DNA of 64,000 bases from Deltaproteobacteria bacterium (GTDB lineage Bacteria > DRYD01): positions 4,272 through 68,271 of the forward strand of contig JAPYWL010000003.1 of assembly GCA_028276365.1 (NCBI GenBank), read 5' to 3'. The notes beneath the pieces were generated by a model. The model saw only the letters and a list, made by a program, of their open reading frames with translations, made no database searches and was not told the origin of the DNA. Positions 2,935-59,741 of the stretch are shown here, piece by piece (positions within the stretch are counted from its first letter, which is position 1; every line of letters starts with the position of its first letter). A program made the translations under genes and the position numbers.

Positions 2935-4251
2935 TTAAGAAAAACTAGATCTATGTTGCATCTCTTGAATTATTTCTTCATAAATCTTTTCTTTATTTTT
3001 TCTTCGTAGATCTCTCTTAGAAGGATAATCAAGATTAACTTTAGAATTATTACCTTCCCAAAGTAAAGCAGCAACTCCATCTAACTGATCCTTCATTTCC
3101 TGACAATATGGACAAGTTCTATAATCATGCGGAGAATCAGAATGCTTAGGTTCAGGATACATAAATATTTTACCTTCATAATTCCTTAAAATTACTCTAC
3201 TATCAGACATAGAAATAACATAATTAGGCATAACAGGAATCTTACCCCCCCCACCAGGAGCATCCACTACAAAATAAGGATTAGCTAATCCCGAAGTATG
3301 ACCTCTTAAAAACTCCATTATTTCTATTCCTTTAGAAACCCTAGTTCTAAAATGCTCTAAGCCCTCAGTTAAATCACATTGATAGATATAGTAAGGCCTA
3401 CATCTATTTTTTAATAATAATTGAAATAATTTTTTCATAACAAATGGACAATCATTAACACCTCTTAATAAAACAGTCTGATTCCCCAAAACTACTCCCG
3501 CATCAGCTAGCATATTTAAAGCTCTAGAGGAATATTTAGTTATCTCTTTAGGATGATTAAAGTGAGTATTTAAATAAATAGGATGATATTTTTTAAGAAT
3601 ATTAACTAATTTTTCCGTAATTCTCATAGGATTAGTTACAGGCATCCTAGAACCTAATCTTATAATTTCTACATGCTCAATAGATCTTAAACCTTGTAAA
3701 ATTTTTTCAATTTTCTCATCACTTAAAGAAAGTGAATCCCCTCCCGAAACAACTATATCCCTTATTTCTTTATGTTTTTTTATATATTCCAACCCCATTT
3801 CTATTTGAGACCAAGGTGTAGGTCTATAACTTACCATTCTACTCCTTGTACAATGCCTACAATAAACAGAACATCTATCAGTAACTAAAAATAATACTCT
3901 ATCAGGATATCTATGAACTACTCCAGGAACAGGCATATCTACATCTTCTGCTAAAGGATCTTCCAAATCAAATGTAGACTTCTCTAATTCATAAATAATA
4001 GGAACTGCTTGTCTTCTTATAGGATCGTTAATATCATTAGGATCCATTAGTAATGCATAATACGGTGTAATTCCCATTGTAAAAATTTCACCTAATCCCT
4101 CTTTAATAGCTCTTTCTTCTTCATTAGTAACATTAATTATTTTTTTAAGCTTTTCTAAAGTAGTTATTCTATTTTGAGTTTGCCAATGAAAATCTTCAAA
4201 TTGCTCTTGAGTAACATCTTTCCACATTTCTATTTCTGTCCAATGTCTCAT
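2935..4251 (-). CDS. kamA: Lysine 2,3-aminomutase (KamA-family radical SAM enzyme)
   Basis: Radical-SAM motif CSVYCRHCTRS, the PGGGGKIP motif typical of the KamA family, and a length of 438 aa. Confidence 0.85.
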   Translation of the reverse strand: MRHWTEIEMWKDVTQEQFEDFHWQTQNRITTLEKLKKIINVTNEEERAIKEGLGEIFTMGITPYYALLMDPNDINDPIRRQAVPIIYELEKSTFDLEDPLAEDVDMPVPGVVHRYPDRVLFLVTDRCSVYCRHCTRSRMVSYRPTPWSQIEMGLEYIKKHKEIRDIVVSGGDSLSLSDEKIEKILQGLRSIEHVEIIRLGSRMPVTNPMRITEKLVNILKKYHPIYLNTHFNHPKEITKYSSRALNMLADAGVVLGNQTVLLRGVNDCPFVMKKLFQLLLKNRCRPYYIYQCDLTEGLEHFRTRVSKGIEIMEFLRGHTSGLANPYFVVDAPGGGGKIPVMPNYVISMSDSRVILRNYEGKIFMYPEPKHSDSPHDYRTCPYCQEMKDQLDGVAALLWEGNNSKVNLDYPSKRDLRRKNKEKIYEEIIQEMQHRSSFS

Positions 4252-4266
4252 TTCCTTTTACCTCCT

Positions 4267-5850
4267 TTACTTAACTAATTCTCTTATTTGATTATAATTA
4301 AAATCAAAATCTAAATCTAAATTATAAATAACTTTATTTAAAATTTTATAATTAATTAAAGCTAAATCATGTAAAACTAAATTAGGTTCAAAAAATATAC
4401 TATTCTCAATAATTTTCAATGCTCTATCATACTCCCCTATCAAAACACTAGCAGCATAAAAATATAATCTACTTTCAGTAAACCCTGGATTTGAGCTAAC
4501 CGAGCCTCTAAAATAATTATAAGCTAAATCAAAGCGCTTAATAACAAAATAATACAACCCTGCTAAAAACCAATAAAAACCATTATTAGGATCATTATCT
4601 ATTAATTTATTTATTCTATTTATACTATCTTCAAAATTCATTTGATTATCATCAACTAACAAATTCTTATACTTAATATAATCCAAAAAATTAATAATAA
4701 CTTTACTTAAAGGAATAAATCCCAAAGTTTTAATAAAATTCTCATAACTTTTATCTCCAAAACTCCATAAAATTACTTTATATAAAACATTTTTAGAATA
4801 AATTAAATCACAAATTTTAAAAACGTTATACTCATTAAATTCTTTATATTCATTTACTTCAAAATCTTTAGAAAAGAAATTTAATATTTTTTCATATAAT
4901 AAATCAATCTCATTTTTAATAATCTCAAATAAATTTAGTCTATAATTTCTTATAGCAATTAATAACTGTAAAACATAGTGCAAATATTCCTTATTATTTT
5001 CTATAATTATATCAGCAATAGAAATAATTCTCGGTAAAAAATCCAATATAAAATAATTTTCCTTAGAATTAAAAACTAAAGACAAAGCTAAAATCAATAA
5101 AACAATAGAAAACTTTGGTAAAAATTGATCTTCATAATTACTAAAAATCTTATCTAAACACTTAACAAAACTTTCATAATCATTTGAATAAAAACTAATA
5201 ATAAGTCCATCAAATAAGATAATTTTATATAAAACATCCAAATCTGAACCTATATTTTTAATTGATTCTTTAAAATCAATGCTATCTTTTTCAAAATTAG
5301 AAGGATCTAATAAATCAATTATTAAAAAAATATCTTCCTTAGCTTTATCTAAATTGTTTAATAAAAAAGCAAAAATAGATCTTAAATAATAAAACTCAAA
5401 ATCACTTATATTCTCTAATCTATCAAAATAATTTATTGCATTAATAAAATCATTATTGAACAATAAATCAAGTATTTTTAAGAAATCATCTGAGAATTTA
5501 ATAACATCAAAAATTCCATTTTCCCTTAAAATTGTCATATTATTACTATTATTATTAATATCATAATTAGAGCTAATAAATTTTTCATAAATAGCATCCA
5601 TAACCTTAGGAAAAAACCAAAAAAATAATAAAGGATTAATAAAAAAAACTGGAAAATAATACCTTACCTTTAAAGGTAAATAAATTTTAAAAACTTTATC
5701 AATATTTGTAACTTTTCTACAAATCCTACATTTACAATCTTTATTATGTTCAATATTATTAGCTATTTCTATTATTTTTTCAGATTCCACTTCTATAAGA
5801 TTAGCCTTTAAATTATCTAAAATTTTTAATCCATAAATTAAATTTCCCAT
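4267..5850 (-). CDS. Hypothetical protein with N-terminal Cys cluster and C-terminal TPR-like repeats
   Basis: 527-aa ORF with a CKCRICRK cluster near the N-terminus and a TPR-like segment (YWFLAGLYYFVIKRFDLAYNYF) near the C-terminus. I recognise no family. Confidence 0.35.
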   Translation of the reverse strand: MGNLIYGLKILDNLKANLIEVESEKIIEIANNIEHNKDCKCRICRKVTNIDKVFKIYLPLKVRYYFPVFFINPLLFFWFFPKVMDAIYEKFISSNYDINNNSNNMTILRENGIFDVIKFSDDFLKILDLLFNNDFINAINYFDRLENISDFEFYYLRSIFAFLLNNLDKAKEDIFLIIDLLDPSNFEKDSIDFKESIKNIGSDLDVLYKIILFDGLIISFYSNDYESFVKCLDKIFSNYEDQFLPKFSIVLLILALSLVFNSKENYFILDFLPRIISIADIIIENNKEYLHYVLQLLIAIRNYRLNLFEIIKNEIDLLYEKILNFFSKDFEVNEYKEFNEYNVFKICDLIYSKNVLYKVILWSFGDKSYENFIKTLGFIPLSKVIINFLDYIKYKNLLVDDNQMNFEDSINRINKLIDNDPNNGFYWFLAGLYYFVIKRFDLAYNYFRGSVSSNPGFTESRLYFYAASVLIGEYDRALKIIENSIFFEPNLVLHDLALINYKILNKVIYNLDLDFDFNYNQIRELVK

Positions 5851-8578: not shown

Positions 8579-9637
8579 TTAAATTTTATTATTCATCTTT
8601 TTAATTTGATCAATAATAGCAGGTAAAATAACTTTATAATCCTCAACAATACCTATATGAGAATATTTAAAAATAGGAGCCTCTTTATCATTGTTAATAG
8701 CTACAATAACCTTAGATTTATTCATACCTGCTAAATGTTGAGTAGCTCCAGAAATTCCAACCGCAATATATAAATCAGGACTAACTGTTTTACCTGTTTG
8801 ACCTATTTGTAAACTTGGATCAATCCAACCAGCATCAACAACAGCCCTTGAAGCACCTACTGCTCCATTTAATAAATTTGCCAACTCCTTTAATAATTCA
8901 AAGCCATCTTTAGATCCTAATCCCCTACCTCCACTAACTATAACCCTTGCCTCCTCTAATTTAGGCCCCATCTTTTGAATCTTATTTATTTTATAAACAC
9001 TAATATCATTAAAAATAGCTTCATAATTTATATCTATTTCCTCAATAATAACTTCATTACTCACATCATTATTAACTAATTCAAAATTAACTAACTCAAA
9101 ATAAGTTGGTTTAAAAGTTAATAAAACCTTATCTCCTCTTAAAATAAAACTACTAATACTTTTAGAACCATATGAAAAAGTTTTAAATATTATATTACTA
9201 TTTATTAATTCAAAATCAAGCAAATTAGTTAAAATACCATAATTAAAATAAGAAGCAACATAAGGCGCAATTTCAGTATTAACTTCATTAGATTGCAAAG
9301 TTATAAAATTTAGTTCTTTATCTTTAGTAAATATAACTTTTAGTACCTGGATTATTAAATCCAATAAATTCTTTGGAAAATAAGATTCATTTAGATTTAA
9401 GCTTAGATTTAAAACATTAAAAAAGTAAATTTTATCAATATTTTTCGAATTTTCCAATAACTTCATTTTATAATCTTGAGAAATATTAACTAAATTAACA
9501 ATTCCTAAATAAGTTTTTTCAATTTTTAATTTATCCTTAGCTTTATTTAAAATCGATATATCACTTAAAAAATTAACTTTATTATCTATATTTAATACTA
9601 AACTTAACATATTCATATTTATATTATTTTTTTTCAA
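8579..9637 (-). CDS. etfA: Electron transfer flavoprotein alpha subunit
   Basis: The C-terminal FAD domain carries [13 protein letters not shown]...[11 protein letters not shown]...[29 protein letters not shown]. The N-terminal domain is divergent. Confidence 0.75.
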
Positions 9638-9741
9638 ATAAAATAATCCTTTTAAAAAAATAAATGAAAAATTACAAATTCAAAATATATTTACTACTTT
9701 AAAAAATATATTTAATACAACAAAATTCCTATTAAACTAAA

Positions 9742-10294
9742 CTAACTTTGGTTAGATTCTAAATTATCAGACATACGGAAAAAAGCAACCAAAGCTATTA
9801 CCCATCCAATAATAGCTAAAATCCCAAATAAAATACTTCCTCCTAATACCCCTAATCCAGCATATTTAAATAAATTATCATTAGTATATTCATAAAATAT
9901 ATCTAAGTATTTTTTAGAGAAAAAACCGGACAAAATAAAACTTAACCATAAAACAAATAAACCTACAAAAAACATAACCCCAAAAGCAGATTTTGCTCCA
10001 AATGAATGACCCCCGATAAAAATAGAAGCAATAGAACTAGCAGATAATATAACAAATAAAATCACACCAATAATAACAATTATAAAACTATAGATAAAAT
10101 TTTTAAATATATCTCCATTATTTAATTTCTTAGAAAAATTAAAAATCCCAATTATATATGCTACAGCCCCCCCCCAACGAAATAATAGCCCCAATTAAGG
10201 GTATAAAACCTCCCACCATAGACCCTAATAACCCAAAAGCACATAACTTCTTTTCTAAACTAATATCAACAACTTCTTGTAATTTGTTATCCAT
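9742..10294 (-). pseudogene. Multi-TM membrane protein gene interrupted by a frameshift in a G9 homopolymer (possibly DUF996-like)
   Basis: The ATG at 10294 is preceded by AAAGGAGGT. The reading frame stops at 10139 after a poly-G tract (plus-strand C9 at 10167-10175). The downstream 150-aa ORF (9742-10194) continues in the -1 frame, with only a TTG and no SD. Confidence 0.65.
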
Positions 10295-10435
10295 AATAAA
10301 ATTATACCTCCTTTGAAATTTCTAATTTAATTATTTTAAATCCAAAAAATAATTACTCTATAGGTATTAAATACTCTAAAAAAAAATCCTCTTTAAAAAT
10401 TAATTTAAAAAGAAAAAACATCTGAAAAAAATAAT

Positions 10436-10861
10436 TTACAAGGTATCTTTATTTTTTAGTTTTTTTAAAAATTCTTCTTGAATAATAAGCATTTCGTTTG
10501 ATTCAGAAAAACCACAAGAATGTAGCAAAGAATGAATTAACACTCTTAATAACTCTTCTTCATAACTAACTTTATATTTCCTTGAGTTATTATAAATAAC
10601 ATTTAAACAAATAAAAATAAAAATGGAATCATCATAAATAAGAGTAATTGTATCCGTAAAATTATCAATATTAAAATACATCTTTTTTAATTCTCTTATT
10701 TTTTTAATAGATAATGTTTGTATGTATATCTTTTTATCTTCTATTTTTTTAGCTAAATCATGATATTCACTCACAAAGTAACCCAAAATTTTATAAAATA
10801 AATTTAAAACTTTTAAATTGTTAGAATAAATAATATTACTTTTAGCTAATTTTTTATACAT
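10436..10861 (-). CDS. ybeY: rRNA maturation endoribonuclease YbeY
   Basis: H-x3-H-x5 style motif HSLLHSCGF, about 140 aa, and located directly downstream of a 7TM-HD (PgpH) gene as in many bacteria. Confidence 0.6.
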   Translation of the reverse strand: MYKKLAKSNIIYSNNLKVLNLFYKILGYFVSEYHDLAKKIEDKKIYIQTLSIKKIRELKKMYFNIDNFTDTITLIYDDSIFIFICLNVIYNNSRKYKVSYEEELLRVLIHSLLHSCGFSESNEMLIIQEEFLKKLKNKDTL

Positions 10862-10878
10862 AATTAAACTAAAGTATA

Positions 10879-13041
10879 CTAATTGTTTTTCTTAAAAGCG
10901 GGGTAAGAAATCCTTTTATGATAACTTATAAGCAAGTATTTAATTACTTCCTGCTTTATTATATTTATATCGTTAAGAGTAATATTAGAATCAGAAAATT
11001 GATCTTCATTAAGTAGTCTATTAATAATATTTTCTGTTAGTTTATAGATAGAATTAAAAGATATTTCATTTAAAGATCTAGAAGCAGCTTCAATACTATC
11101 ACAAATCATAAGGATAACCATCTCCTTAGTATAAGGTTTAGGACCATCATATTTATAATCGTTTATATCAATCTCATATTTCTTATTTTCCTTAGCTCTC
11201 TGTAAAGCTTTAGTATAAAAATACCATATAATAGTAGTACCATGATGAGTTCTAATAAAATCAATTAATTTTTTAGGTAATTTATATTTATTAGCAATCT
11301 CAACCCCTTTTTTAACGTGATTCTTAATAATAAGAGCACTTAAATGAGGTTCAATTTTATCATGGGGATTCTCTTGTCCCTCTTCTAAATTTTCCGCAAA
11401 ATAATTAGGTTTATCAATTTTCCCAATATCATGATATAATGCCCCTAATTTAACCAATAAAGGATTAGCATTAATAGCTTTAGCACAATTCTCACATAAC
11501 TCTGAAACCCTAACACTATGATTAAAAGTCCCCGGAGCTTTCTCCCTTAACATAGTTAATAATTCATTATTTAAATCTAATAATTCTCTTAGTTTATAAT
11601 AAGATATCCCTCCTAATCCTTTCCCTAAATAAATTATTATAAAATTACCTAAGCCAAAAACTAAAATAACCGAAATTACCCACCATAAAACATTAACAGG
11701 ATTATTAAAATTAAATAAAACAAAAACTATAATTGATAATAAGAAAAATACTAAAAACTGGTTAAATAAGCTATATGATAAGACATCCTCGTTATTATCA
11801 TTAGTAAAAATAATAAAAAATAAAATAGAACTAACAATAAAGGGAACTATAAAAGAAATATTTAACATCTCTTGATAATACAAATAATTTAACAACTCCA
11901 AAAGAACTAAAATAATTCCAAAATATACCCATGCAAATCTTATGCCAATAATATAATAAATTATAATACAAAACAATAAAAAAGGAAAAATAAAATAAAC
12001 AGAATCAAAATAAAATTTAATTACCACAACTGAATTGATAAAAATTAGAGTTATAATAAAAAATTTTAAATTCAAATCAAACAAATAATCATATTCTTCA
12101 TTCTTAGCAAAAAGTTTATTAAATAAAAACAATAATAAAATACTTAAAAGAAAAACAATAAAAGAATAAATAAATAAGTAATAAAATTGTATCTTATAAA
12201 ACTTTTGATCTAAGCCCATTTTTTTTATAATATTTAATAATTCAGGATTTATTAAAGTTTTTTTAGGTACAACTATTTCACCTTTCTTTATTTCAAAATG
12301 AGTAGGAATATTTTTTAAATATTCCCTCTGAGTTTCTAAAGTCTTTTGAATATCAAATATTTTATTAAAAATTATTAAATTAGATATTTTTTTTAATATA
12401 ATCTTTTTATAAGCATTTAAATTCTGAATTTCTTTAGGATCGTTTGATAATACAGAAATATCTAAAATACCATCAATTTCAGAAATCACTTTAGGAATAT
12501 CATTAAATTCTATCCCATTTTGTAATTTTAAAATTAAATAACCTTTAATTGAATTATAAAAATACTCAACATACTCAGACTTTATAGATAAAATTAAATT
12601 AATTTCAGCTTCATTAAAATATCTTTTTAGATTATTAACATCTTTTTTAATTTGAGGTAAAAAAAATTGATCAATATTATATATATTTTTTTGAGTTTTT
12701 TTTATATCAATATAATACTCTTTTATCTGAGATATTTTTTTCAGTTTCTCCAGAGTTTCATAAGTATAACCAGAAATAAATAAATCTTTATCAGCTATAA
12801 TATCAAATCTAACAACTTTCTTTATATCATAAACATTAAATAATAAAAAATAATTTAATAAAAATAAACCAAAACTTATAAAAAAAGTATAAGCTATATT
12901 CCGATATATTTCATTATTTTTTAAATTTTTTAAAAAATTTTTTAAGCTATAGAAAAAAGTAGGGACAAATTTAAATACTATATTAAGATAATTATGTAAA
13001 TTTTTATTATGAGAATCCTTAATAGAAAAATTAGAAAACAT
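10879..13041 (-). CDS. pgpH: 7TM receptor with intracellular HD hydrolase domain (PgpH/YqfF family)
   Basis: Extracellular N-terminal domain, a 7-TM block, and an HD domain (LGALYHDIGK, RTHHGT). Confidence 0.8.
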   Translation of the reverse strand: MFSNFSIKDSHNKNLHNYLNIVFKFVPTFFYSLKNFLKNLKNNEIYRNIAYTFFISFGLFLLNYFLLFNVYDIKKVVRFDIIADKDLFISGYTYETLEKLKKISQIKEYYIDIKKTQKNIYNIDQFFLPQIKKDVNNLKRYFNEAEINLILSIKSEYVEYFYNSIKGYLILKLQNGIEFNDIPKVISEIDGILDISVLSNDPKEIQNLNAYKKIILKKISNLIIFNKIFDIQKTLETQREYLKNIPTHFEIKKGEIVVPKKTLINPELLNIIKKMGLDQKFYKIQFYYLFIYSFIVFLLSILLLFLFNKLFAKNEEYDYLFDLNLKFFIITLIFINSVVVIKFYFDSVYFIFPFLLFCIIIYYIIGIRFAWVYFGIILVLLELLNYLYYQEMLNISFIVPFIVSSILFFIIFTNDNNEDVLSYSLFNQFLVFFLLSIIVFVLFNFNNPVNVLWWVISVILVFGLGNFIIIYLGKGLGGISYYKLRELLDLNNELLTMLREKAPGTFNHSVRVSELCENCAKAINANPLLVKLGALYHDIGKIDKPNYFAENLEEGQENPHDKIEPHLSALIIKNHVKKGVEIANKYKLPKKLIDFIRTHHGTTIIWYFYTKALQRAKENKKYEIDINDYKYDGPKPYTKEMVILMICDSIEAASRSLNEISFNSIYKLTENIINRLLNEDQFSDSNITLNDINIIKQEVIKYLLISYHKRISYPAFKKNN

Positions 13042-13964: not shown

Positions 13965-14534
13965 TTAATCCTTCTCTATTTTTATAGCTTTATCTAAAAT
14001 CAAAACCCCATTTAAATGATCATATTCATGCTGTATAACCCTAGCTTTAAAATCCTCATATTCCTTAATTACTTCATTTCCATTTAAATCAACATATTTT
14101 ATTTTTATCTTATTGCTTCTTCTAATTAAAGCAGAAACAAAAGGAACACTTAAACACCCCTCCCAATCCTCATTAAACTGCTTAGAATATTCTATTATCT
14201 CAGGATTAATAAAAACCTCTATATCATCAAGTGATTGTATCTCCTTTTTTTCTCTCTTTACTTCTTCTCTATTATCAATATCTCTTTTTATTATAAATAC
14301 TTTCATATCAAAACCAACCTGAATGGCAGATAAACCCACCCCATCATAGTAATCCATCGTCTTAGCTAAAGATAAAATAAAATTCAAAAACTCCTCCCTC
14401 TTTATTAAATTAAGATTAACTTTCTTTGATTTCTTTCTTAATATTTTATTAGGAACAGTAATTATATCAAAAATAATAGCTTTTTTGTTATTAATCACAT
14501 TATATTTTTTTTCTTGTCCCAAAAAAGAATCCAT
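13965..14534 (-). CDS. def: Peptide deformylase
   Basis: Motifs GVGLSAIQVG, EGCLSVP and HEYDHLNG. Confidence 0.9.
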   Translation of the reverse strand: MDSFLGQEKKYNVINNKKAIIFDIITVPNKILRKKSKKVNLNLIKREEFLNFILSLAKTMDYYDGVGLSAIQVGFDMKVFIIKRDIDNREEVKREKKEIQSLDDIEVFINPEIIEYSKQFNEDWEGCLSVPFVSALIRRSNKIKIKYVDLNGNEVIKEYEDFKARVIQHEYDHLNGVLILDKAIKIEKD

Positions 14535-29683: not shown

Positions 29684-31477
29684 CTAAACTAAAATGGAAT
29701 TATCGTTATTTTGGTCTTTACTAATAATCTTAGCATAATCTTGCATATCTTTAACTTTTTGCTCATTTATCTTTTCTATATAAGAATAAATTAAATTCAT
29801 TTTATTATTAAAAACAAAAATGCCCCCACCATAAATAGGGTAATCCTTAGATTTTACTTTAATAGATTTCGGATATCTATAAGTTAGTTCAATATTTATA
29901 CCTTCATTAAACCCTGGAACAATAAAAACAGAAATATCATCTATACTAAGATAATCAAAATCTAAAGAATAATCCTTTAATATTTTTAATATAACTTCTT
30001 TTAATTCCTTTTCAAATTCTTTGTCATCATTATTTTTTTTATTTAAAATAGAATACAAATTGGTAACTTTGGAATTTTTTGAATTATTTATTTCGTTTAA
30101 AATATCATTAATATTTAGATTTTCAAATATTTTATTTTCATTAGCAGATTTTAGTAAATAAGAAGTTAATTCAGAATTATTAAATAAAATATCAGCAATT
30201 ATAATCGATTTCATAAACTCAGGAATAGTAGTAGTAGCTGGATTAGAAATTTTAGTACCTTTTATAAATATATTATAAAACCTATCTGCTACCTCATTTA
30301 AACTATACTTATCCTTATTATCACTATAAAATTTTATAAATGCTTTATAAAAAGCATTTGATAAAGATTTTGATTGTAAATGAACTTCTTTTTCTTCTTT
30401 TTTTAAGTCAGAATATTTTTTATATTCAAAAGATTCAGATATATCCCTAATTGGTTTTTCATCTTTGATTTTTGATAATTCATCTGGTAACATATAAGGA
30501 TTATTATTTAATAGTTCTTTTGTTTGTTTTATATTGGTATAAATAGTTTTTCCAAAATACTCAGCTATTTGAGAAAGTATATTAGTTTTAGTTAAATCTA
30601 TTTTATTATCTTGGATATACTTTTGGATATTAGGATCAGAGGCAGCACTTAAAAAAGCATTAATATCTCCAAAAGCCTCATGAACAGCTCCTGATTCAAA
30701 GTGAAATTGATTATCAATATATCCTGGTCTTAAGTTATCTAACAATTTATGACCCAACTCATGAATTAGTACATCAGTATCGTTAGACGCATTAATTACT
30801 TCCTGAGTACTTAGATTAAAAACACTACCAAGAACTAATTTATTTGAAATAGGATCATAGTAAGCATTCTTTAAAAAATCCTTATTAGATTGTCCATAAA
30901 GATCTACTTTAAATGGTTTAATAAAATTCTCTTGAGCATAATTCTTTACTCTATTTATATCCTTTTCTATATTATAAACAGTAGATAAAACATCATACAT
31001 TATTGTTTTTGGCTTAAAAACTAATTTATTATCTATTTTATTTAAATCTCCCAGTTCTTGTTTAATCTTATCATACTGGGTTAAAACCATAGAAATATTA
31101 TCAGTTTTTATTATAAAAGCTTTCTGGGGTATACCTTTCATTATTTGTTTTACTATATTATTAATTTTATCTTGAGGTATATAATTTTTTTTCTCTTTAA
31201 TATCAATATTTTCTAAATTTATTACTTGCTTTTTAGTTTGGAATAAATTACTTTTAATTTTATCAAAAATTTTCTTTAAATCATTTTCAATATTTTTTTT
31301 AATTTCATCATTTAAAATAAATTCGCCAATAGTTAATTTAGTGGGCAAGACATCCTGATAATAATTATCAATATTTTGAGGATGATAATTTATAAGCACA
31401 TTATTTAACTCTTTTTTATTTTGACTATATTTTAACATTAAATAATTTAAATTAACTAATTTAGATAAATCAAACAT
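29684..31477 (-). CDS. Thermolysin-like (M4-type) zinc metallopeptidase domain protein
   Basis: HELGH followed by ESGAVHEAFGD, matching the M4 HExxH...ESGAxNEAxSD signature. No obvious signal peptide. 597 aa. Confidence 0.6.
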   Translation of the reverse strand: MFDLSKLVNLNYLMLKYSQNKKELNNVLINYHPQNIDNYYQDVLPTKLTIGEFILNDEIKKNIENDLKKIFDKIKSNLFQTKKQVINLENIDIKEKKNYIPQDKINNIVKQIMKGIPQKAFIIKTDNISMVLTQYDKIKQELGDLNKIDNKLVFKPKTIMYDVLSTVYNIEKDINRVKNYAQENFIKPFKVDLYGQSNKDFLKNAYYDPISNKLVLGSVFNLSTQEVINASNDTDVLIHELGHKLLDNLRPGYIDNQFHFESGAVHEAFGDINAFLSAASDPNIQKYIQDNKIDLTKTNILSQIAEYFGKTIYTNIKQTKELLNNNPYMLPDELSKIKDEKPIRDISESFEYKKYSDLKKEEKEVHLQSKSLSNAFYKAFIKFYSDNKDKYSLNEVADRFYNIFIKGTKISNPATTTIPEFMKSIIIADILFNNSELTSYLLKSANENKIFENLNINDILNEINNSKNSKVTNLYSILNKKNNDDKEFEKELKEVILKILKDYSLDFDYLSIDDISVFIVPGFNEGINIELTYRYPKSIKVKSKDYPIYGGGIFVFNNKMNLIYSYIEKINEQKVKDMQDYAKIISKDQNNDNSILV

Positions 31478-40303: not shown

Positions 40304-41527
40304 TCAATTTATTATATTAGTATTTGCTTTAATATAAGATTTACCTTTATTATAGATTAGTTCCTCAAATTTTTTAAAATCAAAACTGAAATCTTTATTA
40401 ATATTATTATTTTTATTTATTTTATTTATATTTTCTTTGATTTTTGAGATAAATAGATTAAAATCAATTTCTTTATTTTTTTCCTCTTTAATAACATCAA
40501 TATTAGGATTATATTTAGAAACAGTTATTGCATTATAATATTGATGATCATCAGCTGCATAAGGATAAGGTATCAATATAGCATTTTTATTTAAGTATAA
40601 TATTTCAGTAGTAGCAATTCCCCCTGCCCTACTTATTACTATATCACTACTTAAATAAAAATCTATTATCTCATTAACATATTCCAAAATAATTATTTCA
40701 ATATCATTATTACCGTATTTTACCTTAAAAATCATTTTATTATTATCCAAAAACTTATCATGATTTAAATTCCTTTTATTATTTGGTACTAATTTAATTA
40801 GATCATTTTTTACATCATTAAAATTTTTCTTTCCACAAATTATAGATATTTTTTTTATACTTTGTAATTCATTACTAAACTCATTATTATTGGATAATAA
40901 AAAATCAATAAATTTAATTGCTAAATTACTAATAGATTTAGCTCCTAAACTACCACCTATAAAAAGTAAATTAATCCCCCCCTTATCTAAATTACTAGTA
41001 TTACTATCTATTAAATAAAACTCTTTTCTTAATGGATTAGGAAAAATATAACATTTATTATGATAAATTTTATTAATATAATTTAAAGACTCTTTAAAAG
41101 GGAGTATAATAATATCAGCAATATTAGCTAACAATTTATTAGCCTTACCTACTAAAACATTTTGTTCCATAATAATTAATTTTTTATTTTTTAACTTAGC
41201 AGCAAAACCCGCAGGAATGCTATTAGAACTACCTAAAGTTATTACTACATCTATTGATAATTTATCTATCAAATTAGCTATAAATAAAACATCACTAAAA
41301 AACACTGAAATATTACTAAAGAAATTTTTTAAATAAAAATGATAAAACGGTTTTATATAAAAAGAAGTTACATTATATTTAGCTTCTAATTCAGAAACTT
41401 GAGAAACATTAACAGAATTAATAGGTAAAATCAAAAAGTACTTATTATTATTAAGATTTTGGATAATAGAATAAGCAGGATAAAAGTGTCCCCCTGTACT
41501 TCCAGCACTAAATAAAATATTTCTCAT
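40304..41527 (-). CDS. murG: MurG-like glycosyltransferase (UDP-GlcNAc:lipid I transferase family) with C-terminal extension
   Basis: FSAGSTGGHFYPAYSI N-terminal motif, GGSLGA, and RAGGIATTEI. Confidence 0.7.
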   Translation of the reverse strand: MRNILFSAGSTGGHFYPAYSIIQNLNNNKYFLILPINSVNVSQVSELEAKYNVTSFYIKPFYHFYLKNFFSNISVFFSDVLFIANLIDKLSIDVVITLGSSNSIPAGFAAKLKNKKLIIMEQNVLVGKANKLLANIADIIILPFKESLNYINKIYHNKCYIFPNPLRKEFYLIDSNTSNLDKGGINLLFIGGSLGAKSISNLAIKFIDFLLSNNNEFSNELQSIKKISIICGKKNFNDVKNDLIKLVPNNKRNLNHDKFLDNNKMIFKVKYGNNDIEIIILEYVNEIIDFYLSSDIVISRAGGIATTEILYLNKNAILIPYPYAADDHQYYNAITVSKYNPNIDVIKEEKNKEIDFNLFISKIKENINKINKNNNINKDFSFDFKKFEELIYNKGKSYIKANTNIIN

Positions 41528-57745: not shown

Positions 57746-59068
57746 CTACTTATGCTTTTTAATTCTTTGAATAAGTGCATCAGTTAAATTTACAACATTA
57801 TTCTTATTATAACTAATATAATTAATAAATACATAATCCACATCATATAATTTAGCTATTTCGTCAATATAAGGTTCTATATTTTTTAAGATCTGATAAT
57901 TTAAATTATTTAATTTCTCATTTAAATTAGATATTTTATTATTTAAATTTATTAATTTTTGAGTATATAACAAGTTATATTTTTGAGCTAACTTTTGTTG
58001 ATATTGTCTAATTTTTTCGTTAGCTTTTTGAAACTCCTGGTTATAATTTGTATATAATTCTTTTAATGCTTCATTATTTTGAGATTTTATAATTTCCCTT
58101 AAATTTTTATTATATTCCTGTTCTAATTTACTAACATAATTATTATATTCATCTATTATTTGTTGCTTTTTAATATTGTAATCTTTATGATACTGATTAA
58201 GTATTTTTTTCACTTCTTGTTTATATTGCTGCTCATATTTATTAGCTATTTCTTTTTGTGTTTGATATAATTCTTTTTCTATCTCTTGAGACTTAGATTT
58301 ATATAATTCCTCTTGCCTTGATTTTATTAATTCTAATTTATTTAATAGCTCTTCTCTCTTAGGATCGTATATTGAAGTATTAGTTAGTTTTAAATTTATA
58401 TTAGTTATCTCATTTTTATAAATCTCATTTAGTGATACTTTATAATTATCTAATTCAGTTTTATACTTTTTATATAAATTATCTATTTCAGATTTTATTT
58501 TTTGATGATAATTTTGTTGAATATTATAAATGTTTTGATTCAATTGAGAATATAATTCTTTTTCATAATTATAAATAATATATTGAGTTTGTTTTCTTTT
58601 TTGTATTATATTTTTTTCAATTTTATTTTTTAATTCTATAATTTTATTTTTCAATTGTTGATCTATTTCCTTACTTTTTAGTAAATTTTCAGATAACTGT
58701 TTTTCTAACTTTTTTTGATTAGATAATATATTATTAGAATATATTTCCATTTCTTTTATAAATTGTAATTCCAAACTTTTATCCAAATTATATATTTCAT
58801 TATAGGAATTTTTAATTTCCTGTTTTGTTTGAATTAATGCTAAATATATATCCTCAAAAGAATAAATTACTTTTGAAATATCAATAACCCCATATTTATA
58901 ATCAATACTTAATTTTTGATTATTTTTATAAGCAAATATATATTTAGATAAAGATAAAACAAATAAAGTAAATAGAATTAAAAAAATAAAAATAATTAAA
59001 TAATCACTTAAATTCTTTTTTGGAGTTTTTAGTATGATACTTTTTAGAAATATATTTTTGAATTTCAT
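57746..59068 (-). CDS. Membrane-anchored, Q/K/E-rich coiled-coil protein (extended OmpH/Skp-like)
   Basis: N-terminal signal anchor, then about 350 aa of coiled coil. Lies between a Skp-like gene and lpxD. Confidence 0.45.
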   Translation of the reverse strand: MKFKNIFLKSIILKTPKKNLSDYLIIFIFLILFTLFVLSLSKYIFAYKNNQKLSIDYKYGVIDISKVIYSFEDIYLALIQTKQEIKNSYNEIYNLDKSLELQFIKEMEIYSNNILSNQKKLEKQLSENLLKSKEIDQQLKNKIIELKNKIEKNIIQKRKQTQYIIYNYEKELYSQLNQNIYNIQQNYHQKIKSEIDNLYKKYKTELDNYKVSLNEIYKNEITNINLKLTNTSIYDPKREELLNKLELIKSRQEELYKSKSQEIEKELYQTQKEIANKYEQQYKQEVKKILNQYHKDYNIKKQQIIDEYNNYVSKLEQEYNKNLREIIKSQNNEALKELYTNYNQEFQKANEKIRQYQQKLAQKYNLLYTQKLINLNNKISNLNEKLNNLNYQILKNIEPYIDEIAKLYDVDYVFINYISYNKNNVVNLTDALIQRIKKHK

Positions 59069-59741
59069 AAGTTAAATCAATACCTCCTAATAATACATTG
59101 GATTTATCAAAAATAATTAAGATATCATTTTGTTTATCTTTATACAATTTTTGAAAATCTATATCCTTTAAATTTAAATTATTTTTGATATTAGACAAAT
59201 CAACATAAGCTATATTAAAAGAGTAATTCAAATTTGAAGTTAAATCCAAATTCTTATTTGAATCTAAGGTTTGAATTACCTCATTAGTAAGATCTTTATA
59301 ACCATATACAATACTATCACTAGTTAGAATAATACCAATATTCTCTTTATTAGCAGTAGTTATTACAGCTCTTTCTAAATTTTTGTAGAATTCACTTAAA
59401 TATTCCTGTTTTTTATTTTCTAAAATAACAGATAACTTATTAGCTGTTTCTTTTAACTCTTTCTCATTTTTAGTTAATGAAATTTTATTTAATTGATCCT
59501 TATATTCTAGTTCCAAATTATAAATTTTATCCTGAATTTGTTTATAATATTTACTATCTCTTATCTTTGTTAAATCCACCCTTCCAATTAATACCTTAGA
59601 ATTCTCATTTTTTAATTGATTTGATTTATTACAACTATTTAATACAAAAGAAAAAGAAAGAAAATATAAAATAAAAAAAATAAAACTTATATTCCTAGTT
59701 ATATTTTTGTTTTTTTCTACTTTCAAACCTAATTTAATCAT
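59004..59741 (-). CDS. skp: OmpH/Skp-like periplasmic chaperone (lipoprotein-type signal)
   Basis: Signal peptide ending in LNSC, a helical K/E-rich body, and the conserved skp-lpxD neighbourhood. Confidence 0.5.
   Translation of the reverse strand: MIKLGLKVEKNKNITRNISFIFFILYFLSFSFVLNSCNKSNQLKNENSKVLIGRVDLTKIRDSKYYKQIQDKIYNLELEYKDQLNKISLTKNEKELKETANKLSVILENKKQEYLSEFYKNLERAVITTANKENIGIILTSDSIVYGYKDLTNEVIQTLDSNKNLDLTSNLNYSFNIAYVDLSNIKNNLNLKDIDFQKLYKDKQNDILIIFDKSNVLLGGIDLTYEIQKYISKKYHTKNSKKEFK

Follow-up and report, generated by a model that had tools for sequence, protein, structure and literature searches.

Phase variation driven by homopolymeric tracts is textbook knowledge for Campylobacter, Neisseria, Haemophilus and Helicobacter; to our knowledge, it has rarely been documented in free-living or extremophilic bacteria and hardly ever from metagenomes alone. 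The present study concerns a stretch of 64,000 nucleotides (nt) of contig JAPYWL010000003.1 from a Deltaproteobacteria bacterium (positions 4,272 to 68,271; this whole stretch is hereafter called the window), where a run of nine G splits a gene of the DUF996 membrane protein family (9742-10294, minus strand). In the phasome of Campylobacter jejuni and C. coli, genes have been called phase-variable with a G/C cut-off of at least 7 (the PhasomeIt criteria), and variability between the members of a homology group has been taken as indicative of phase variation (PMC6321876). In Neisseria meningitidis, poly-G tracts are located within the hmbR and hpuAB open reading frames (ORFs) (PMC3786947) and in the porA promoter (PMC3639595). 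Vibrio cholerae O1 possesses poly-A tracts in the lipopolysaccharide genes wbeL and manA, and selection by phages has been demonstrated there (PMC3441752). The DUF996 gene of the window is probably a locus of the same general kind, namely a translational, homopolymer-driven phase-variable gene that is OFF in the window.

The G9 run of the window exceeds the cut-off applied to Campylobacter, and the resemblance to the phasome described in PMC6321876 extends to the high A+T content of the genome, the position of a G tract of 7-10 nt inside the 5' part of the gene, frameshifting between ON and OFF states, variation of tract length by strain and by homologue, and envelope-associated products. At the same time, the window stems from an uncultured bacterium living freely in hot springs, in contrast to a host-adapted pathogen such as Campylobacter, and the product, an inner-membrane protein of the DUF996 family, is not that of a glycosyltransferase, flagellar or capsule gene. 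The translational poly-G switch of Neisseria hmbR represents the same mechanism as the one proposed here for the DUF996 gene. In V. cholerae O1, as is suggested for the window, single-base slippage in a coding homopolymer turns off an envelope component, and escape from phages is the scenario considered most plausible in the present study too, but the tracts are poly-A there and poly-G in the window, and the phage selection demonstrated for V. cholerae is for the window a supposition.

The gene begins with an ATG at 10294-10292, located 11 nt downstream of the Shine-Dalgarno (SD) sequence AAAGGAGGT (10306-10314, minus strand), which is read directly in the window; an SD of the form A(A/G)GGAGGT is preserved in nearly all DUF996 orthologues according to the allele alignments. 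The reading frame opened by this ATG (10139-10294, minus strand) meets the G9 run (plus-strand C9) at 10167-10175, referred to below as tract 1, and ends with a TAA at 10139-10141; the resulting 51-aa OFF product would run from the N-terminus through helix 1 into helix 2 and then through nine out-of-frame codons. Tract 1 covers codons 40-43 of 183 (TTG GGG GGG GGC) in the minus-strand context ...ATTATTTCGTT GGGGGGGGG CTGTAGC... and encodes Gly41-Gly42 and contributes the first base(s) to codon 43, within a predicted helix spanning residues 34-56. The 3' part of the gene (9742-10166, minus strand) is open throughout in the adjacent frame, with neither an SD nor an ATG to start it; the 150-aa ORF found there (9742-10194) starts mechanically with a TTG, and its translation bears the DUF996 match (P0006). 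Internal re-initiation of this ORF was considered and ruled out because it offers only that TTG and no SD. Editing tract 1 in silico to G8 or G11 gives a single ORF of 183 aa, and G7, G9 or G10 lead to truncation at 43-51 aa, so a change of one base toggles between the full-length and the truncated product; since the window has G9, its DUF996 gene is OFF. The preliminary description had reported the ATG with its strong SD, the termination at 10139, a 150-aa ORF in the adjacent frame devoid of start signals, and the fusion of both frames into a protein of about 183 aa by removing one G or adding two; all of this was recovered here. In relatives, public gene callers have called the downstream fragments from alternative-frame ATGs, e.g., P0007, which starts with MCFWVIR....

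The evidence that carries the phase-variable reading comes from related strains, whose tract lengths the preliminary description had proposed to compare. Twelve distinct alleles, all syntenic (ybeY-DUF996-etfA) and originating from independent hot-spring metagenomes, were aligned, and tract 1 was read between the fixed flanks ATTATTTCNTT and GTAGCATAT; the comparison revealed G6, G7, G8, G9 and interrupted forms, both in and out of frame. The OFF state at tract 1 is represented by G9 followed by CT in the window, G7 followed by CT (L001/L002 and L013/L014), GGAGGGGGG followed by CT (L010; 9 nt with an internal A) and G8 followed by T, which is one base short (L015). The ON state is represented by G8 followed by TT (L003/L004), G7 followed by TTT (L021), T, G6 and ATT (L005-L008) and the interrupted form GGGTGG(N) (L012, L016, L018, L020); the third tandem DUF996 copy in L024 has G8 in frame as well. 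Among the out-of-frame alleles there are both +1 and -1 shifts. Over the 589-nt gene region, which includes the upstream leader, the identity of the window to L002 is 98.1%; their coding sequences (552 nt) are separated by seven substitutions, but tract 1 differs by two steps (G9 and G7). OFF lengths are found below and above the ON length in 98% identical alleles, which indicates repeated steps through or around G8. On a single tract correction, six of the seven OFF alleles become full-length, stop-free ORFs of 182-188 aa and are otherwise intact, the exception being L010, which needs three corrections. A uniform G9 accompanied by truncated orthologues, looked for in the 12 alleles, is not the pattern seen; the polymorphism of tract length with ON and OFF states in these syntenic alleles supports the suggestion of the preliminary description that the G9 run, an uninterrupted G/C homopolymer of at least 7 nt within an ORF, is a candidate phase-variable switch.

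A second G tract, tract 2 (ATC GGG GGT; 10010-10014, minus strand), is G5 and in frame in the window and lies in the hypervariable loop joining helices 3 and 4. At this tract, G7 is found in the ON state (L003, L021 and the first tandem copy in L024), G6 in the ON state in L013 and in the OFF state in L016/L017, and G5 in the OFF state in L018/L019 and L010. Eight of the ten frameshifts in the aligned alleles fall within tracts 1 and 2, together about 3% of the gene; of the others, one is in a T tract and one in non-repetitive sequence. A census based on a protein search, covering 25 close homologue clusters, showed 12 clusters of full length (171-212 aa), four broken at tract 1 with an alternative-frame start just before the tract (P0006, P0007, P0012, P0020), three ending in a shifted frame exactly at tract 2 (P0021, P0022, P0024), three with a common C-terminal truncation (P0014, P0015, P0017) and three odd or partial clusters left unclassified (P0011, P0018, P0025). 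Long pure tracts include four OFF and three ON cases and short or interrupted tracts one OFF and seven ON; this contrast is not significant (Fisher p ~0.1) and is not used as evidence because the numbers are too small.

The homopolymer itself is exceptional for DNA with a G+C content of 23.4%. It is the sole G/C run of at least 9 nt in the window, where the only other runs of at least 7 nt are a G8 at 3245-3252 and a G7 at 40976-40982, both in frame within intact ORFs of lysine-2,3-aminomutase-like and MurG-like proteins; the preliminary description had named it as the longest such run and as unique in interrupting a reading frame, and both statements are borne out. The pattern GGGGGGGG occurs three times in the window (overlapping matches counted) at an expectation of 0.14, and none of 100 dinucleotide-preserving shuffles reached three, in agreement with the initial view of the run as highly unexpected in such AT-rich DNA. 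GGG accounts for 10 of the 22 glycine codons in the DUF996 gene and for 19% in 59 other ORFs of the window (Fisher p = 0.005), and, across 24 fetched loci, no G run of at least 7 nt lies outside the DUF996 genes except those located about 110 nt 5' of a 203-aa DUF996 paralogue. This enrichment and this confinement point to G tracts being a property of the DUF996 family that persists where the composition of the genome should erode it. As for the other two runs, both on the minus strand, the G8 belongs to the radical-SAM gene at 2935-4251, where GGT GGG GGG GGT encodes part of the motif PGGGGK, and the G7 to the MurG-like glycosyltransferase gene at 40304-41527. The codons corresponding to the aminomutase G8 in L022 are GGTGGTGGGGGT (GGT GGT GGG GGT), a synonymous interruption with unchanged length; this G8 can serve as a useful internal control tract and is a potential second mutable site.

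Comparison of the frame-restored protein with Pfam clearly indicates its membership in PF06195 (E-value 4.8e-17; score 62.9 bits, cut-off 31.3), a family of uncharacterised archaeal and bacterial membrane proteins; the match lies well above the gathering threshold and extends over positions 2-136 of the 138 in the model. No NCBIfam family was found for the frame-restored protein, and DUF996 was not mentioned in the literature searched. The full-length homologues (182-186 aa) are 72-91% identical to it. AlphaFold2 modelling with 26 homologues predicted six helices (residues 12-30, 34-56, 60-93, 98-137, 140-154 and 160-173; mean predicted local distance difference test, pLDDT, 84.7; predicted template modelling score, pTM, 0.79), which is consistent with the architecture of a multi-helix integral membrane protein. 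The window clade differs from DUF996 proteins in general in an additional conserved N-terminal segment, DISLEKKL, whereas the distant members P0027-P0038 contain added zinc-ribbon-type domains (PF13240 and related Pfam matches) that are absent from the window protein; P0026 has the DUF996 match only, and the consensus of the distant members contains a CxxC...CxxC motif at the C-terminus. The motifs DISLEKKL, FSKKLNNGDIFKNF and SKKYLDIFYEYT are invariant even among paralogues that are 50-57% identical, so the protein appears to be under selection. Variability is concentrated at residues 66-112, including the loop bearing tract 2, and the central hairpin occurs as two alternative types, ...IFIGGHSFGAKSA... 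and ...YMSRNFHSLS(ELS)DQAKIA....

The ratio of nonsynonymous to synonymous substitution rates (dN/dS) of the DUF996 genes is 0.4-1.6, compared to 0.11-0.31 for ybeY, etfA and the neighbouring HD-domain gene at similar dS, and since pairs of ON alleles show values as high as pairs with OFF alleles, the high ratio seems to be a trait of the family and not a sign of decay. The number of DUF996 copies at the locus is one in the window, two in L005/L006, two in L018 and L022, and four in L023/L024; the interval between ybeY and etfA contains one, two or three tandem DUF996 genes depending on the strain (4082-6519 in L023/L024, 1877-3561 in L005/L006). Fast evolution, one to four copies and invariant motifs beside a hypervariable hairpin would be the hallmarks of a variable envelope family.

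The most serious alternative is that a dispensable DUF996 gene is lost recurrently and essentially irreversibly, with the G tracts as its weakest points, the window containing a young pseudogene; we regard this as unlikely, although several facts speak for it. The dN/dS values are far above those of the neighbours, about 10 of the 22 classifiable clusters among the 25 closest are broken or truncated, and not all lesions are in homopolymers, as L012, P0014, P0015 and P0017 share a 1-nt deletion outside any homopolymer and an insertion destroys the SD in L012. Moreover, all four alleles with the window haplotype are OFF. On the other hand, a decayed pseudogene with several lesions and lost constraint was recognised only in L010, the window having one lesion, and six of the seven OFF alleles carry a single lesion in an otherwise open, full-length gene. 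Irreversible loss also fits poorly with OFF states flanking the ON length (G7 and G9) in 98% identical alleles, with ON-ON pairs equal in dN/dS to those including OFF alleles, with motifs invariant across paralogues of 50-57% identity, with long uninterrupted G tracts that persist despite 23% G+C and a 19% share of GGG codons, and with a family that is undergoing duplication and not loss alone. A sequencing or assembly artefact, in which the true tract would be G8, the gene intact and the ninth G a homopolymer miscall, is improbable. Homopolymers are classic sites of indel errors, a look-up of the window's own product (P0006) found no record, and the related assembly of sample 3300066320 contains housekeeping genes in a split form, namely hslU in L022 (a 1-nt insertion at 14353-14363, TTGAAGAT to TTGAAGGAT, on the 1.86-Mb contig Ga0599197_00009) and the HD gene in L023, so the alleles from that assembly need caution. 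Nevertheless, 42 of the 57 long homopolymers of the window (A/T of at least 8, G/C of at least 7) lie within intact ORFs, including the in-frame G8 and G7, and DUF996 is the sole broken gene among about 60. The genes ybeY, etfA, phosphopentomutase and the HD gene are intact wherever present in the loci of the aligned alleles, the additional loci L022 and L023 being the exceptions; a sign of generic homopolymer error was looked for in these neighbours and in the homopolymers of the window and was not seen. Tracts that depart from the ON length were obtained from several independent samples and by two assemblers; where the same samples were assembled both by the Joint Genome Institute (JGI) and in Logan, the two versions agree, and the aminomutase control G8 has an unchanged length in L022. 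In L010, from an independent assembly, the 9-nt tract contains an internal A, which a miscall of run length cannot produce.

Recoding, in which G9 would be the normal state and the full-length protein would be made by programmed +1 ribosomal frameshifting or slippage of RNA polymerase, is the least credible of these alternatives and very improbable. Long homopolymers are generally known to cause transcriptional slippage, as A-runs do in dnaX of Thermus and in genes of endosymbionts, and some leaky expression from G9 is plausible. Known slippage-prone runs are, however, mostly A or T, the G9 is not directly followed by a stop or a rare codon, and a conserved stimulatory element was not apparent. 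Programmed sites are conserved in length and frame, but the DUF996 orthologues are in frame, +1 or -1; a conserved out-of-frame arrangement was not found, and recoding was rejected because the orthologues are not fixed in one frame.

Several further observations weigh against phase variation as the explanation. The haplotype of the window, TCGTT-Gn-CTGTAG, was found at OFF lengths only (G9, G7, G7 and GGAGGGGGG), and the G8 ON allele with the exact flanks of the window, which would be expected, was not seen among the alleles compared. The OFF alleles of tract 2 in L016-L019 come from mini-metagenomes obtained by multiple displacement amplification (MDA) and sequenced on NextSeq (PMC5498146), a weaker type of data; P0024, from NCBI, shows the same tract-2 break. 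L010 resembles a decaying pseudogene, with an interrupted tract and two more indels, and is locked OFF because of this interruption, and dN/dS values of 0.4-1.6 would also be expected of a dispensable, weakly constrained gene. The frame-restored protein has no PADLOC match and only PHROGs matches with E > 0.08, and a Foldseek search with its model found no significant neighbour (best E-values 0.75 in PDB and 0.41 in BFVD). With these points taken into account, a phase-variable DUF996 gene is still the reading that we favour.

In a phase-variable DUF996 gene, slipped-strand mispairing at the poly-G of codons 40-43 would add or remove single G residues during replication. With the flanks of the window, G8 (or G11) would join the SD-preceded start to the rest of the gene and give a 183-aa DUF996 inner-membrane protein with six predicted helices; with G7, G9 or G10, translation would end after about 43-51 residues, and the remainder, lacking its own start signals, would stay untranslated. 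Tract 2, shorter and located in the central loop, would provide a second way to break the gene. Such switching may be frequent and reversible within a population and may act as bet-hedging for a dispensable envelope protein; a phage or another agent targeting an exposed loop would be the most plausible pressure, and the "contingency" in the initial reading, i.e., its adaptive part, is to be taken with the same reserve.

A possible extension concerns the 203-aa DUF996 paralogue. It is the second copy in L018 and L022, sited between the HD gene and ybeY, and accompanies three tandem DUF996 genes in L023/L024; a tblastn search for DUF996 paralogues within the window found none, and the window lacks the 203-aa form because just 17 nt separate the HD gene from ybeY. 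About 110 nt 5' of this paralogue, in the interval between the HD receptor gene and ybeY, there is a G7 (7026-7032 in L022, 1179-1185 in L023 and 1180-1186 in L024), just past the hairpin ATGTAAA-TGTTAC-TTTACAT and adjoining TTTACA, a -35-like hexamer; at the homologous site in L018 (near 147-151), a G5 is followed by TTT. This upstream G7 could be a candidate promoter-spacer poly-G switch and, in L022 and L024, recalls the promoter tract of Neisseria porA, with the promoter role a conjecture; the proteins are not homologous to those of Neisseria, and the paralogue is missing from the window. More speculatively, and with less confidence than for the switch itself, the DUF996 genes at the locus might constitute a small phasome of a free-living, moderately thermophilic (55-65 °C) Calescibacterium-related bacterium, where one to four copies are switched singly by coding and perhaps promoter poly-G tracts, diversifying selection acts on one exposed loop, and stochastic switching lets cells escape hot-spring phages or some other envelope-targeting agent.

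The region upstream of the DUF996 gene contains one more homopolymer, a T9 tract in the ybeY-DUF996 intergenic region (10378-10386, minus strand), about 85 nt 5' of the ATG, which is T8 or T9 among orthologues and may be located in the promoter region. A promoter and terminator scan of 9500-10600 gave six promoter-like sites against 8.0 expected from shuffled sequence, and no terminators; no promoter is therefore claimed for this tract. In L012, an ~85-bp insertion (~230-315) separates the conserved upstream region from the start codon; it replaces the SD (AAAGGAGGTG becomes TTTTTCGGTG) and may be a small mobile element. The 1-nt deletion of this allele that was mentioned above truncates the C-terminus.

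The gene order of the locus is a gene for an HD-domain seven-transmembrane (7TM) receptor, ybeY (10436-10861), DUF996, an EtfA-like gene (8579-9637), phosphopentomutase and hslU. The EtfA-like gene of the window has no adjoining EtfB partner, and in L010 (6721-6977) it is absent, phosphopentomutase following about 250 nt after DUF996. The relatedness of the strains is mosaic across 8579-13041 of the window when L020 and L002 are compared: window and L020 are identical in etfA at synonymous sites and have a dS of 0.17 in ybeY, and L002 and L020 have a dS of 0 in ybeY with one nonsynonymous difference; this mosaic indicates frequent recombination around the locus. The placement of the organism was made with one protein, HslU, which is 91-96% identical to proteins of metagenome bins and 75% identical to those of metagenome-assembled genomes (MAGs) labelled Candidatus Calescibacterium sp. 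Neither the exact flank pattern nor a peptide-pattern scan based on the family alignment revealed a relative among 185,579 GTDB species representatives; the DUF996 clade was not found there. Related loci originate from Yellowstone hot springs of 55-65 °C (IMG 3300006065 and 3300006068; PMC5498146) and from the 60 °C site of Great Boiling Spring, Nevada (IMG 3300020153; PMC6624737).

Searches of the 64 kb of the window with ARAGORN found no tRNA, and neither rRNA nor any other Rfam family was found at the gathering score, so there is no RNA-based explanation to consider. Nearly all genes of the window (1-64000) are on the minus strand, and the GC skew is strongly negative throughout. A 440-aa membrane-anchored, apparently coiled-coil protein with a high content of K, N, E and Q is encoded at 57746-59068 (minus strand); its ORF includes a single glycine codon and shares 65 nt with the upstream ORF 59004-59741. 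The ORFs 4267-5850 (527 aa) and 29684-31477 (597 aa), both on the minus strand, had no Pfam match at E <= 1e-5.

The mechanism considered here is already known; the setting, a free-living hot-spring bacterium, and the product, a DUF996 protein, set this case apart. There is also a practical warning, since genes of this kind are routinely split or mis-started by gene callers, and their fragments stand in databases as separate proteins (P0006, P0007, P0012 and P0020-P0022 are examples). Natural alleles from the hot springs of Yellowstone and Nevada already show both ON and OFF states. If the proposed switch is real, contingency loci, usually seen as an adaptation of host-associated pathogens, would extend to geothermal communities at 55-65 °C, and DUF996 would be marked as a dispensable envelope protein, probably under pressure from phages or other antagonists; the small phasome suggested above, if real, would also give the first functional handle on this family.

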